DNA of 64,000 nt from Rhodomicrobium sp. (GTDB lineage: Bacteria > Pseudomonadota > Alphaproteobacteria > Rhizobiales > HXMU1428-3). Within the stretch, counting starts at the first letter, position 1; every line of letters begins with the position of its first letter. The stretch lies in contig BQJK01000001.1 of NCBI GenBank assembly GCA_021604665.1, forward strand, positions 956,419 to 1,020,418, read 5' to 3'. Positions 52,503 to 64,000 of the stretch are shown one piece after another. The notes beneath the pieces are model-generated. The model saw only the letters and a list, made by a program, of their open reading frames with translations. It had not been told where the DNA came from and ran no database searches. Position numbers and translations under genes: made by a program.

Positions 52503-53234
52503 CTACTCAGCGACCGCTTCAAAAAGATCAGGATAACGCGCCTTAACTTCAGCCCGTTTCGCCTCAATAGCCGCTTCATTCGCCCGGTCCGTCGGCAAAA
52601 TTTTCAAACGCTCACGCACACGGCCAGGCCGGGTGGTAATTAATAAAACCTCTTCACCAAGTTCCACAGCTTCACGCATGTCATGGGTCACCATCACAGC
52701 GGTTATCGGGTTGTCTTCCCACAATCGGCGCACAAGCTGGCGCAGCCTCGAAGCGGTTGGTGCATCTAGCGAAACAAAAGGTTCATCAAGCAATAATAGA
52801 TTTGGTTTCGTTGCAAACGCCCGCGCAATGCCAACCCGGCGCGCCAGACCAAGCGACAATTCAGAGGGAAAATTATCAACCAGCTCAGTTAGCCCCATCG
52901 CCTCCATCAGCTGGCTAAATTCAGCCTCACCAAACGTTGGGTCAGCCCGGAGCATCACATTGTCCCGAACGGAGCGCCATGGCAAAAGGCGCGGCTCTTG
53001 AAACACAAATCCAATTTTCGGCGGGGTCTCCCACTCCACCTTGCCTTTATAATGCGGGTCCAGCCCGGCAAGTATTCTGAGCAAGGTAGATTTACCGCAG
53101 CCAGATGGGCCAAACAAAACAGTGAAACTGTTTTTAGTCAGGGTGAAATGCGTATCCTCAAGCGCTAAAATCTTACCGCCATTGGCACTCGTATATATTT
53201 TTTCGTCTATATGAACCTTAAGCAGGCTCTGCAC
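52503..53234 (-). CDS. ABC transporter ATP-binding protein, NitT/TauT family
   Basis: GPSGCGKST, variant signature LSLGLARRV, LLDEPF; GTG start overlaps permease end. Confidence 0.9.
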   Translation of the reverse strand: MQSLLKVHIDEKIYTSANGGKILALEDTHFTLTKNSFTVLFGPSGCGKSTLLRILAGLDPHYKGKVEWETPPKIGFVFQEPRLLPWRSVRDNVMLRADPTFGEAEFSQLMEAMGLTELVDNFPSELSLGLARRVGIARAFATKPNLLLLDEPFVSLDAPTASRLRQLVRRLWEDNPITAVMVTHDMREAVELGEEVLLITTRPGRVRERLKILPTDRANEAAIEAKRAEVKARYPDLFEAVAE

Positions 53235-53964
53235 GCCAACGTGTTGCATAACGCTCCCACGGTTGAATAAACACAATTTCAATCACCAGCATCACCGCAA
53301 TAAAAGCAACGGAATAAGCAAAGATCGCCGCCACATTGAAGAGCTGAAAATAAGTATGGAGTTGGAAGCCAACCCCATCAGAGCGGCCGATAAACTCAAC
53401 CACCAAAACAATCTTCCATATCAATGACAAACCAGACCGCCCCGCCGCCGCTAAAAATGGCTGCAACTGCGGAAAGATAATATGCTGATAGCGCTGCAAA
53501 TTCGTATAACGGAAACTAGCCGCCATCTCATCCAGCTCAGCACTGAGAGACCGCGCGCCCTCGCGCAGCATCACCGCCACATTCGGCACCTTATTGATAA
53601 CAACAGCAAGAATGGCCGCTGTCTCCGTCAGGCCGCCCCAGATATAGCATAGGAATATGATAACAAGAGCAGGCACATTGAGAAAGAACACAAGCCAGGG
53701 GTCAAAAATGCCATTGAATAAATGGCTCCGCCCCATAGCAAGGCCAATCACCGTGCCAAGCAACATAGCAATCACAAAGCTGGCCATAACCCGCCATAGA
53801 GTAATAAACAGATGATAGAATAAATCCCCGTTTTGCACCTCATCGATCAGCGTCATGAATACTTTTTCAGGGCCGGGAAATAACCTGTCATTCACCAGCC
53901 AGGCCACAACAAGCCACAGCACCAAAAAACCAACAATCGATAACAGAGGATAGAACCGCCGCAT
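53218..53964 (-). CDS. ABC transporter permease, NitT/TauT family
   Basis: Six TM segments, EAA-like loop LDEMAASFR, EFIGRSDGVG. Confidence 0.9.
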   Translation of the reverse strand: MRRFYPLLSIVGFLVLWLVVAWLVNDRLFPGPEKVFMTLIDEVQNGDLFYHLFITLWRVMASFVIAMLLGTVIGLAMGRSHLFNGIFDPWLVFFLNVPALVIIFLCYIWGGLTETAAILAVVINKVPNVAVMLREGARSLSAELDEMAASFRYTNLQRYQHIIFPQLQPFLAAAGRSGLSLIWKIVLVVEFIGRSDGVGFQLHTYFQLFNVAAIFAYSVAFIAVMLVIEIVFIQPWERYATRWRAEPA

Positions 53965-53966
53965 AA

Positions 53967-54995
53967 CTACTCAGCCTTTTGCTCGGTTTCAACCGGTTGA
54001 GAGATATCACCCGTCAGCCAGAAGGTACCAGGACTTAGCGTTTTGGAATTGCCCACAAGTTTGCGGCCTCCAAGTTCCACCAGTACATTAAAAAGCCTTG
54101 CAACATCCGCCCGCTCAACAACAAGCGGCCGCCTGAGAATACCTATGCGAAATGATTTTTTCAGCGCTTCAAATGTTGCCTCATCTTCAGCCTTCATACG
54201 GGGGCGAATTTCCTCCCAGATGGCTTCATCCTTATCAAGAATTGCAATAGCATCCTGAATAGCTGAGAGAAACCCTCTTATTTGATCTTCATTGGCAGCG
54301 GCCCATTTATCGTGAAAAGCAAAGCCAATAGCGACAGTCGGGCCAGAAGTGCCAAGTCCGGTCATCACATCACCAACAGATAAAAGTGAGCGAAAACCTT
54401 TAGCTTCCAAACGCGCACTAAAATGCCAAAAGTTCAGAATAGCATCAAACTCACCGCGGATCATTTTCTGTGTCAACAAGGGCGGCGCCCCGTAAACAGG
54501 TGTCACGATCTCAGCAAGATCAACGCCAATAGTTTGCTTGGCGTAAGCGCGAAGGAACAACCAGCTTTTATCAAGCGGACCACCGGCAACGCCGAGTGTT
54601 TTACCCTTTAAATCCTCAAGCGACTTAATCGGAGACTCTGCCGCCACCATCAAATGACCAACAGCTGAACTATAAGGCACCATGGCAAAATCTGCGCCTT
54701 CAGCACGTTGCCTCGATATCCAGGTCCAGTCAGTTGCAACAATATCAGCCGAACCGCCCTGCAGAGCAATCTTGGCCCCATTCGTGTTCGCAAGCGGAAT
54801 AACACTCAACTTAAAGTTATGCTTCTCATCAAGTTTGCGCAGCTTCACCGTGTCCAGAACCCAGTTAACCGTTCCAAATTTTAAAGTCGCAACTCTGAGG
54901 GCATCAGCTGCTTGAGCTGGATTATTGCAGGCACTGCCGAAGCTAAGACATAAAACAACTAGGATGAGAGAGGTTAATCGCAAAATTGTCGTCAT
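53967..54995 (-). CDS. ABC transporter substrate-binding protein, NitT/TauT family (subtype seen with PQQ-ADH / lanthanide-uptake loci)
   Basis: Signal peptide; KFGTVNW, DWTWISRQR, PYSSAVG, GGPLDKSWL, YGAPPLL, LNFWHFSARLE; subtype call from memory. Confidence 0.8.
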   Translation of the reverse strand: MTTILRLTSLILVVLCLSFGSACNNPAQAADALRVATLKFGTVNWVLDTVKLRKLDEKHNFKLSVIPLANTNGAKIALQGGSADIVATDWTWISRQRAEGADFAMVPYSSAVGHLMVAAESPIKSLEDLKGKTLGVAGGPLDKSWLFLRAYAKQTIGVDLAEIVTPVYGAPPLLTQKMIRGEFDAILNFWHFSARLEAKGFRSLLSVGDVMTGLGTSGPTVAIGFAFHDKWAAANEDQIRGFLSAIQDAIAILDKDEAIWEEIRPRMKAEDEATFEALKKSFRIGILRRPLVVERADVARLFNVLVELGGRKLVGNSKTLSPGTFWLTGDISQPVETEQKAE

Positions 54996-55153
54996 ATATA
55001 TAGACACCTATTCGATAGAATTTGTTATGTCTGAAGGGCTGAACGCCCTTTGCTGGCGGTCTTTTACTAATTTATTTAGCTTTATTTTTGGCCATAATTT
55101 TCAGACCAAACTTTTCTCTAGAGAGACCATGCTTCCTGTAACCACCTATCTTT

Positions 55154-55446: not shown

Positions 55447-56154
55447 ATGAGAAACAAGATCTTAAGCCTATTCATCTTTATGATGGGGCTATTCGCAGCA
55501 CTTACCACACCGCTCCTCACAGCGCGGGCTGACGACACCTCAGAAAAGCAACGCCAAACCAACACCCCAAGCCTCAAAACCCCAAAGCGCGAATTAAAAA
55601 TCACAAAAGGTGCTGAGCCACCAATAATTTGGCACAAACGATACCGCCACATAGATAAAGTAACAGGGCTAAGAACCGCCTATTACCGTGCGGCGCTCCC
55701 CCCCAAAGTGCCCGGCGGCACACGAATAGATGTAAAACAGGCCTATGATCATTACAAAAACAAAGACGCGCTTTTTATTGATGTAATGGCCCACACAGGC
55801 ACCGGCCCGGACCCAATAGATGGCTATTGGCGGCTTTCAGAACCGCGAAGCAATATACCGGATAGCTATTGGCTGGCAGATGTTGGCACAGGCACCCTCA
55901 CACCTGAAATGCAGCACTATTATAAAGAGAACCTAAGGAAGATAACAGGCGGCGATAAAACAAAAGCGCTCATTCTCTATTGCACCGCAGATTGCTGGAT
56001 GGCGTGGAATGCCGTGCGGCGAGCGTCTCGCCTTGGTTACACAAATCTGCTCTGGTTCCCAGAAGGCAGCGACGAATGGAGCGCCGCCGGTTATCCATTA
56101 AAAAACTCTATCCCGATACCGCTGGACTTAGATGAAAACATAGAGGAAGAATGA
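55447..56154 (+). CDS. Exported rhodanese-like protein, PQQ-dependent catabolism-associated CXXCW type
   Basis: Signal peptide; YYRAALP..VPGG, FIDVM, IPDSYWLADVG, LYCTADCWMAWNAVRRA, WFPEGSDEW. Confidence 0.85.
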   Translation: MRNKILSLFIFMMGLFAALTTPLLTARADDTSEKQRQTNTPSLKTPKRELKITKGAEPPIIWHKRYRHIDKVTGLRTAYYRAALPPKVPGGTRIDVKQAYDHYKNKDALFIDVMAHTGTGPDPIDGYWRLSEPRSNIPDSYWLADVGTGTLTPEMQHYYKENLRKITGGDKTKALILYCTADCWMAWNAVRRASRLGYTNLLWFPEGSDEWSAAGYPLKNSIPIPLDLDENIEEE

Positions 56155-62355: not shown

Positions 62356-63180
62356 ATGAATAAATACGCAATCGCATCACTCACATGCGCCTCTTTGCTG
62401 CTCGCAGCAAATCCAGCCTACGCCATCAGCCTTGAAGAAGCTGGCGTCGAAAAAGGCGAAGTCGAACTTCAGTATGAAGCAACCTACACTGATAAAAACG
62501 CCGAAGGTGCCTATGAGCATGAAGAAGAAATCGAAGTTCAAATGGGCCTGACAGACTGGTTGCTGCTCACCGTTGGCTTCGGTTTTGAGGAAGAGGAAGG
62601 TGAACGGGATTTTGAATTTTCCGAACTTGAGGGCTCAGTTCAAATTGAACTGGTTGATCCTGAAAAAGGTGGATTTGGATTTGCCCTTCTCGCTGGCTTT
62701 AGCAAAGAGTTCGCCGCAGAATCGGGAGAAGAGGACGAAAACACCTACAAGATTGGTGCCATTGCCGAGCACCACTACAATAAGTGGCTGTTCAGAGGCA
62801 ATCTGTTTTACATCTCCGATATTGACGGCGACGGCGAAGAAGAATTTGATGGCGTAGAATATGCCTATCAAATCAAATACGACGTTAGCGAAAAGCTCGG
62901 CGTCGGCGTTGAAGGCTACGGCACTCACCAGGAATTTGATGACCCAGGCGAAGATGATGTTGACCAGCACATGGTTGGCCCGGTTCTCTACTATAGCTTT
63001 GAACGTGGAAATGATACCAGCCGCCACGCGTCCATTAAAGATGTAGCTGAAATTGGCGGCGAAGACGGTGATGACGAAGATGAAGGCATCGAATTCGAGC
63101 TTCAGGCCGGCGTGCTGTTTGGCACAACGGACGACACCGCTGATGTGACTTATAAATGGGGCCTTGAGATCGAATTCTAG
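62356..63180 (+). CDS. Highly acidic outer-membrane beta-barrel protein (putative porin)
   Basis: Signal peptide ending AYA, alternating amphipathic strands, C-terminal YKWGLEIEF; about 69 Asp/Glu versus about 15 Lys/Arg in 274 aa (hand count). Confidence 0.8.
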   Translation: MNKYAIASLTCASLLLAANPAYAISLEEAGVEKGEVELQYEATYTDKNAEGAYEHEEEIEVQMGLTDWLLLTVGFGFEEEEGERDFEFSELEGSVQIELVDPEKGGFGFALLAGFSKEFAAESGEEDENTYKIGAIAEHHYNKWLFRGNLFYISDIDGDGEEEFDGVEYAYQIKYDVSEKLGVGVEGYGTHQEFDDPGEDDVDQHMVGPVLYYSFERGNDTSRHASIKDVAEIGGEDGDDEDEGIEFELQAGVLFGTTDDTADVTYKWGLEIEF

Positions 63181-63254: not shown

Positions 63255-63323
63255 GTTGGCTTATTGTTTATTGAGTTCTACGCGCCCAGCCATTAAAATC
63301 GGATGAAATGGAGAGACTTGATA

Positions 63324-63575
63324 ATGGATGTAACCCTGAAACTATATGCAACCCTAACGCCCTTCCTGCCCTCAGGTGCGGAGAAAAACCAGATTTCTAT
63401 AGATGTCTCAGAAGGCAGCTCAGTCATGGACATTGTAGATAAATACCAGCTGCCAAAAGAAAGCTGCCACCTCATTCTGGTAAATGGCAATTACACGCCT
63501 TTAGCTTCTGCTGACCAGAAAATCCTTGTAGAAGGTGACACCCTGGCTATATGGCCCCCCGTTGCCGGTGGGTAG
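63324..63575 (+). CDS. moaD: MoaD/ThiS ubiquitin-like sulfur carrier (AorD-like)
   Basis: LILVNG, GDTLAIWPPVAGG C-terminal di-glycine; GGAGA SD before ATG 63324. Confidence 0.9.
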   Translation: MDVTLKLYATLTPFLPSGAEKNQISIDVSEGSSVMDIVDKYQLPKESCHLILVNGNYTPLASADQKILVEGDTLAIWPPVAGG

Positions 63576-63855
63576 CCCATATCCCCATTCTATATATATT
63601 GGCTATTACCGATATAAAGCGGCGGTTTAAAAAACGAGAGGGTTAAGAATCTAACGGCTTTAAAACAACTGGGCACCCCTGGTTTTATTAGAGAGCTCTC
63701 AGAAAACCCCTCATTTTCTAAGAATAAGCCGTTTTATTGCATTTTTTAGGCTCAGATTCTGTTTTATGCCTAAGAGCTGATGCGCTATATTACAGACAAG
63801 TTAAAACACAGAGCCAAAGCCATTATGCTAAGGCTCACCAACGGGAGATAGCATT

Positions 63856-63945
63856 ATGAAAAATTGGACAACACCACAAGTTTCTGAAACTGAAACAGGC
63901 ATGGAAGTAACTTCTTATATGCCTGCTGAACTTGACCGCGCATAA
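63856..63945 (+). CDS. pqqA: PQQ precursor peptide PqqA (29 aa, MKNWTTPQVSETETGMEVTSYMPAELDRA)
   Basis: GGGAG SD 8 nt upstream; W-x-x-P leader and GMEVTSY core with the E-x3-Y pair; too short for the ORF track. Confidence 0.9.
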   Translation: MKNWTTPQVSETETGMEVTSYMPAELDRA

Positions 63946-63968
63946 GCGATTAAGTTTCTATATATGAA

Positions 63969-64000
63969 AACCGGCGGTTGAGAGAAATCTCCCGCCGGTT
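63969..64000 (+). terminator. Hairpin after pqqA (terminator or stabilising stem)
   Basis: AACCGGCGG...GAGA-GAAA-TCTC-CCGCCGGTT; any T-tail lies beyond the window edge. Confidence 0.7.

Follow-up and report, generated by a model that had tools for sequence, protein, structure and literature searches.

The 3' end of the window, i.e., of the whole 64,000-nt stretch of DNA that was analysed (positions 956419-1020418 of contig C1, in a 2.9 Mb genome of six contigs with 49% G+C), carries a short ORF of the pqqA type, which lies downstream of an aldehyde:ferredoxin oxidoreductase (aor) locus and is followed by a hairpin that the window end cuts. The next 14 kb past the window (L001, in which a position equals the window position minus 63582) contain a second copy of this ORF and the genes of pyrroloquinoline quinone (PQQ) biosynthesis. 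The features referred to below are:

Window 55447-56151, + strand: gene of a rhodanese-like protein matching TIGR03865 (PQQ_CXXCW, 'PQQ-dependent catabolism-associated CXXCW motif protein') with 170 bits (cut-off 128)
Window 62356-63180: gene of an acidic 274-aa beta-barrel protein (OMP), directly on the upstream side of the tandem pqqA genes
Window 63303-63575: MoaD-like gene, adjoining the tandem pqqA pair and separated from copy 1 by a 280-nt gap
Window 63682..63706, + strand: conserved box of TTTTATTAGA-N5-TCTCAGAAA type, about 170 nt 5' of the copy-1 ATG, candidate promoter or regulator site
Window 63843..63848, + strand: Shine-Dalgarno sequence GGGAGA of pqqA copy 1, 7 nt 5' of the ATG
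Window 63856..63945, + strand: pqqA copy 1, ATG start, 29 codons and a stop, reading MKNWTTPQVSETETGMEVTSYMPAELDRA
Window 63966..64000 (L001 about 384-424), + strand: predicted intrinsic terminator of copy 1, comprising an A-tract, a G+C-rich stem-loop and a U7 tail that extends 5-6 nt beyond the window end
L001 772-861: pqqA copy 2, encoding a peptide identical to that of copy 1, with the ribosome-binding site (RBS) AAGGAGA and its own predicted terminator
L001 1043-1975: pqqB, 397 bits, exceeding the NCBIfam equivalog cut-off
L001 1972-2709: pqqC, 359 bits, exceeding the NCBIfam equivalog cut-off
L001 2785-3105: pqqD, 73 bits, exceeding the NCBIfam equivalog cut-off
L001 3102-4238: pqqE, 554 bits, exceeding the NCBIfam equivalog cut-off
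C1 194914-195000, - strand: dispersed pqqA copy 3, encoding MTWTAPQVS and then the same core, with an RBS and a stem-plus-U-tract terminator

The pqqA copies and the pqqBCDE cluster

The product of copy 1 has the small size of PqqA proteins, about 20-40 aa, and their motifs, namely, 29 aa with the leader W4-x-x-P7 and the core G15-M-E17-V-T-S-Y21. A sequence-only reading of the window had identified this ORF as pqqA on the basis of its 29 codons and a good Shine-Dalgarno sequence, both of which were found as described, and had proposed a search with PqqA profiles; the peptide exceeds the cut-offs of both curated ones (35.2 bits vs. 21.1 for Pfam PF08042; 34.8 bits vs. 20 for the NCBIfam equivalog TIGR02107), and the identification was right. 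The Shine-Dalgarno position is retained as GGGAGA or GGAGA in 11 of 12 aligned loci. The W-x-x-P and G-x-E-x3-Y columns are also present in 59 distinct alphaproteobacterial PqqA peptides, a set gathered with a pattern that itself demands the leader and core motifs. Results of our analysis indicate that the region 63856-63945 is a genuine pqqA, the gene of the predicted PQQ precursor peptide. Its Glu17 and Tyr21 are, by homology to the cross-linked pair Glu16/Tyr20 of the Methylorubrum extorquens AM1 peptide (PMC10906245), the PQQ-forming residues.

The possibility that the ORF at 63856-63945 arose by chance was ruled out by the model scores and by a divergence from copy 2 that preserves the peptide. 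A mirror ORF of 29 codons opposite pqqA (63854-63943, - strand) is without support and was rejected as a by-product of the coding frame.

The earlier description of the gene as unannotated holds for the ORF track supplied with the window, from which it was missing, but not beyond it: the exact 29-mer is present on 37 contigs in public protein collections, and close relatives (of the dispersed-copy type and in related MAGs) are named 'pyrroloquinoline quinone precursor peptide PqqA' by NCBI. Peptide-precursor genes of this kind escape ORF tracks that apply a length cut-off.

Past the window end, the gene order is pqqA-terminator-pqqA-terminator-pqqB-C-D-E, with copy 1 as the first gene and the window stopping inside the copy-1 terminator. 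From the start of copy 1 to that of copy 2 the distance is 498 nt, and 181 nt separate the copy-2 stop from the pqqB start. The cognate maturation enzymes PqqB, PqqC, PqqD, and PqqE are thus encoded adjacent to the tandem pqqA pair. The sequence-only reading had advised looking for pqqB beyond position 64000 and counting the pqqA copies, and had named a genome devoid of pqqDE as evidence against its proposal; pqqB was found with pqqC, pqqD, and pqqE after it, and a single PqqD and a single PqqE gene, each the only one in the genome, lie 2.5-3 kb downstream of copy 1. In a scan of the whole genome, three pqqA matches and no more exceeded the cut-off; the third is located on the same contig, 825 kb away.

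Five loci, all outside the window, score above the cut-off of the PQQ-alcohol-dehydrogenase model TIGR03075, so that, by this measure, no fewer than five PQQ-dependent alcohol or methanol dehydrogenases are encoded in the genome. The end of the window is therefore the head of a complete pqqA-pqqA-pqqBCDE cluster, with which the organism would make its own PQQ for several quinoprotein dehydrogenases. Three pqqA genes, one PqqD gene, one PqqE gene, and five TIGR03075 loci in one genome constitute the multi-copy pqqA arrangement of methylotrophs. The closest named relatives of PqqB are from marine Hyphomicrobiales or Methyloligella-labelled MAGs (74-78% identity), followed by those of cultured Methyloligella species (61-65%) and Methyloceanibacter (about 60-62%), and the organism is therefore a Methyloligellaceae-type methylotroph, an alphaproteobacterium.

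Conservation of the precursor peptide

Ten of the 87 coding nucleotides, spread over eight codons and including a TCT/AGC serine switch, are different in copies 1 and 2, and yet the two peptides do not differ at all; among 200,000 random sets of 10 substitutions not one preserved the peptide. The NG86 estimates are 0.64 for dS and 0.03 for dN (dN/dS about 0.05), with the non-zero dN coming solely from the serine path. These values indicate that the pqqA peptide is under purifying selection, which would mean that it is translated. The flanks of the three copies are unalignable, which implies that the duplication is old and that only the peptide, the RBS, and the terminators have been retained.

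A pqqA gene was found in each of the 13 same-genus genomes searched. At least nine of the 13 carry an adjacent tandem pair with a spacing of about 370-510 nt, one of them (G001) having a triple, and the dispersed MTWTAPQ-type copy is also present in most genomes of the genus. In a sample of the class, pqqA was detected in 50 of 301 alphaproteobacterial genomes; two or more matches occur in 16 of the 49 others, and tight tandem pqqA arrays in at least five unrelated genomes (G091, G238, G246, G196, and G099).

The sequence-only reading had regarded the cysteine-free peptide, with ETETG in front of the core, as a notable variant when compared to peptides of EICVG type. Literally, the copy-1 peptide is free of cysteine, and the contrast with EICVG-type peptides is real, but it represents only a clade signature in the segment of PqqA that varies most. 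The stretch SETETGMEVTSYMPAELDRA is identical in all peptides recovered from the genus, except for one species with Thr in place of Glu11 and one dispersed copy that reads TETETG. In the 59-peptide sample, no part of PqqA varies more than the four residues that connect the leader to Gly. Cysteine is present in the leader or linker of 29 of these 59 peptides, and most of the others have it after Tyr. Fully cysteine-free PqqA peptides outside the genus are few: four are from other families of the order (ETPVG, EQEVG, ESETG, and ETDTG), two of which, ESETG and ETDTG, are similar to ETETG, and one is from a more distant member of the class (ETRIG). To our knowledge, PqqA of Klebsiella (the enterobacterial type) and of Pseudomonas is also devoid of cysteine, which implies that this residue is not required for PQQ formation. 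Because the SETETG...Y core is identical across the genus with the exception of one species, the acidic, cysteine-free ETETG linker is a lineage trait in a variable segment and not an anomaly. The idea that a cysteine-free peptide marks an unusual substrate was rejected, given that the trait is genus-wide and located in the variable linker.

Replacements in the leader are mirrored in both tandem copies of a given genome (N3/Q8 here, E3/S8 in the G010 group, and D3/N5/E8 in L037). In G001, the two-nucleotide change from Glu11 to Thr is shared by the four copies, the dispersed one among them, and their synonymous sites differ. When close species are compared, pqqA orthologues are more similar to one another than paralogues. 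This pattern, seen in the copies compared (L001, L002, L027, L037, L042, and L022), suggests concerted evolution, either by gene conversion or through co-selection by the single PqqD/PqqE. A broader proposal, that the pqqA paralogues of the genus evolve in concert and are at the same time wired differently, with copy 1 co-expressed with the upstream OMP/MoaD-like (aor) genes, appears to us rather unlikely as a whole. If true, such wiring would link the PQQ precursor supply to the tungsten aldehyde-oxidoreductase module.

Terminators, upstream boxes, and neighbouring genes

The hairpin that the sequence-only reading had noted 23 nt after the pqqA stop is present and strong, and the window shows only a part of the element. 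The G+C-rich stem begins about 23-25 nt past the stop (about 63969-63999) and consists of 12 outer and four inner base pairs followed by T7; the window is cut just ahead of this U tract. The calculated free energy of the hairpin is -25.9 kcal/mol (z = -5.4), none of 200 shuffled sequences folded as well, and the MFE and centroid structures agree on a single stable hairpin. The stem is kept in nine loci of the genus with compensatory changes in five of 14 pairs, and GGTTTTTT and the U tract are invariant, so that structure rather than sequence is conserved. A stable G+C stem and a U tract are also found downstream of the two other pqqA copies, the copy-2 terminator having a 13-pair stem (L001 911-941) followed by T9. 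A search of Rfam gave only two sub-threshold chance matches. By its predicted fold, the copy-1 hairpin is a textbook intrinsic (Rho-independent) terminator, only partly visible inside the window.

The sequence-only reading had offered two alternatives, that the gene opens a pqq operon or that it is an extra copy that boosts the precursor supply, and each of them is half right: the gene stands at the head of pqqBCDE, as the first of two tandem copies, and the complete intrinsic terminator that it carries makes an additional source of precursor its most likely role.

Upstream of the pqqA copies, several conserved elements were identified. The box at 63682..63706 is conserved in most loci of the genus, with diverging flanks, and a repeat search revealed a TTAGAGAGCT-TCA element, identical to the copy-1 box at 13 of 14 positions, at the same distance 5' of copy 2. 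Copy 2 is additionally preceded by a TTTTATGATTRG box and an A/T-rich hexamer, putatively -10-like. A scan for consensus sigma-70 promoters on the + strand upstream of copies 1 and 2 found none, and no convincing sigma-54 -24/-12 site was detected upstream of the three copies, the counts of matches being at the level of shuffled sequences. The conserved boxes suggest that each pqqA copy may have a separate promoter.

Upstream of copy 3 (L002 about 1560-1700, - strand), the elements GTTGCACT-N10-TTTTGYTAAKAT, a putative extended -10 promoter, are conserved across the species of the genus, and a second conserved element, CCCAAG-N4-TGGGAGGGAACC, is a box of the 5'UTR. The neighbours of copy 3 encode a SoxY-SoxZ fusion and a DUF302 protein. 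Just past the copy-2 terminator, 5' of pqqB, the TTGATATTTCTCATTGAAT block (L001 about 951-969) is retained by about 10 of the 12 loci of the genus, while the spacer around it diverges and measures between roughly 180 and 430 nt; this block is unlike a sigma-70 promoter.

The genes 5' of pqqA encode a 4Fe-4S protein, an aldehyde:ferredoxin oxidoreductase (AOR) of tungsten type, an FAD oxidoreductase, the acidic beta-barrel protein, and the MoaD/ThiS-like protein, and none of these proteins uses PQQ. The pqqA gene had been taken as the firmest evidence that ties this locus to PQQ. Our results do not bear this out, as copy 1 belongs to the downstream pqq biosynthesis cluster, and the adjacency to pqqA alone gives no ground for reading the tungsten aldehyde-oxidoreductase genes as PQQ-dependent. 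Nor is pqqA the sole link to PQQ in the window, given the TIGR03865 match at 55447-56151. The gene of this PQQ_CXXCW protein is divergent from those of an ABC transporter of NitT/TauT type (52503-55007).

A barrel homologue of 27-31% identity is encoded immediately 5' of pqqB in Methyloceanibacter-like loci, and a gene of a TonB-dependent receptor occupies the place of the barrel gene 5' of pqqB in Methyloligella halotolerans. Genes of outer-membrane proteins thus recur next to pqq genes in the Methyloligellaceae, as judged from the window and loci L047-L052 and L044.

Precursor supply and comparison with known systems

Taken together, the identity of the gene, the copy number, the purifying selection on the peptide, the conserved terminators, and the linkage to a single pqqBCDE set make it very probable that copy 1 is a functional pqqA, the first of a tandem pair heading pqqBCDE, with its own terminator, and that the additional copies provide an excess of precursor. 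In this scheme, the radical-SAM enzyme PqqE would cross-link Glu17 and Tyr21 of the ribosomally made precursor peptide, for which PqqD would serve as a leader-binding chaperone, and the cross-linked peptide would be processed by PqqB and PqqC to PQQ. PqqA would be consumed stoichiometrically, one peptide per PQQ, and PqqB-E would act as catalysts. Because the precursor is used one-for-one, the enzymes turn over, and several PQQ-dependent alcohol or methanol dehydrogenases presumably have to be supplied, the extra terminated pqqA copies most likely serve to provide an excess of precursor message. With duplicated, individually terminated pqqA units, short pqqA transcripts would then most likely far outnumber the pqqBCDE message, and the expression of pqqBCDE may rely on incomplete termination after copy 2 or on another promoter.

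It is quite improbable that copy 1 instead forms part of the upstream aor/OMP/MoaD-like group and is transcribed mainly by read-through, which would couple the precursor supply to that locus, as in one of the alternatives of the sequence-only reading. The OMP and MoaD-like genes are indeed located directly 5' of the tandem pqqA in every genus relative with enough flanking sequence, the interval from the MoaD-like stop (63575) to copy 1 showed no intrinsic terminator, and the PQQ_CXXCW protein is encoded 8 kb upstream. However, the 280-nt gap contains conserved boxes, one of which recurs ahead of copy 2 at an equal distance, and this speaks for a separate copy-1 promoter. The upstream AOR, of tungsten or molybdopterin type, and its Fe-S and FAD subunits make no use of PQQ, and every PQQ-dependent dehydrogenase of the genome is encoded outside the window. 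Moreover, in more distant relatives the gene of the OMP homologue abuts pqqB itself, which indicates that what is conserved is the proximity to the pqq cluster and not to aor.

The reading of the hairpin as a regulated attenuator switched by a signal, as opposed to a constitutive terminator and 3' stabiliser, also has a low probability in our view. It would make sense for the terminator that separates copy 2 from pqqB, as some read-through or an internal promoter is necessary there and a conserved block directly follows the terminator, and regulation across the pqqA-pqqB spacer has been reported in Ketogulonicigenium vulgare (PMC10520945). In the case of copy 1, however, no anti-terminator pairing was predicted next to the one stable hairpin on which both folding methods agree, no Rfam family was matched, and the gene that follows the hairpin is another pqqA with upstream boxes of its own. 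That copy 1 is a redundant duplicate, decaying or silent, is highly improbable. The same core is encoded by two other copies, and certain pqqA copies are nearly silent in some methylotrophs (PMC9851590), but the start codon, RBS, and terminator of copy 1 are intact, its peptide is unchanged despite a dS of about 0.64, and the two-copy arrangement has been kept across the genus.

The kind of gene and the tandem, multi-copy arrangement of pqqA are already known in methylotrophs (methanol-using bacteria). The PqqA peptide encoded in the pqqABC/DE cluster of M. extorquens AM1 is similar to that of copy 1 in its 29 residues, W-x-x-P leader, four-residue linker, and G-M-E-V-T-S-Y core. Its linker is of ICV type with a cysteine, as opposed to ETET here, and the C-terminal tail of copy 1, MPAELDRA, is unlike that of AM1. 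Ramamoorthi and Lidstrom are said to have described, in 1995, an abundant short pqqA transcript in this strain. As in the genome studied here, AM1 is a methylotroph with a single set of enzymes and more than one pqqA; the difference is that the tandem pair is located directly before pqqB here, whereas AM1 has one copy at the operon and a spare pair elsewhere. Two further pqqA homologues of AM1, with consecutive locus tags, would explain the production of PQQ by a pqqA mutant (PMC6520949).

In Methylophilaceae, three to 12 copies of pqqA accompany single pqqB-G genes (PMC4109929), and in a methylotroph with five copies these are differentially expressed (PMC9851590). A multi-copy pqqA of Methylovorus sp. 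MP688 has been described by Ge et al. 2015, as cited in PMC6520949. Methylophilaceae and MP688 resemble the present case in having several pqqA genes vs. single pqqB-E genes, with some of the copies dispersed, monocistronic, and differently expressed (PMC4109929, PMC9851590). Unlike our alphaproteobacterial genus, with its fixed two tandem copies (three in one species) and one dispersed copy, they are Betaproteobacteria and have more copies. The genus would thus be a further case of a known rule, according to which methylotrophs multiply the gene of the stoichiometrically consumed precursor and not those of the enzymes.

The pqqABCDE(F) operons of K. vulgare and of Klebsiella and Pseudomonas types are similar to the cluster described here in that pqqA is the first gene and a structured spacer precedes pqqB. 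In K. vulgare, expression of the precursor greatly exceeds that of the enzymes, the difference between genes of the operon being about 1000-fold, and the intergenic region of 159 bp between pqqA and pqqB restricts how strongly the genes after it are expressed (PMC10520945). In contrast to these operons, which contain a single pqqA, the gene is duplicated here, and each of the copies is followed by a predicted canonical terminator with a U tract.

Tandem copies of pqqA can collapse in metagenome assemblies. In a related MAG (L035 2074-2298, corresponding to L016 1495-1719), a run of N fuses the tandem copies into one 74-codon 'ORF', which, the region being a tandem repeat, reflects a scaffold gap and constitutes an annotation trap.
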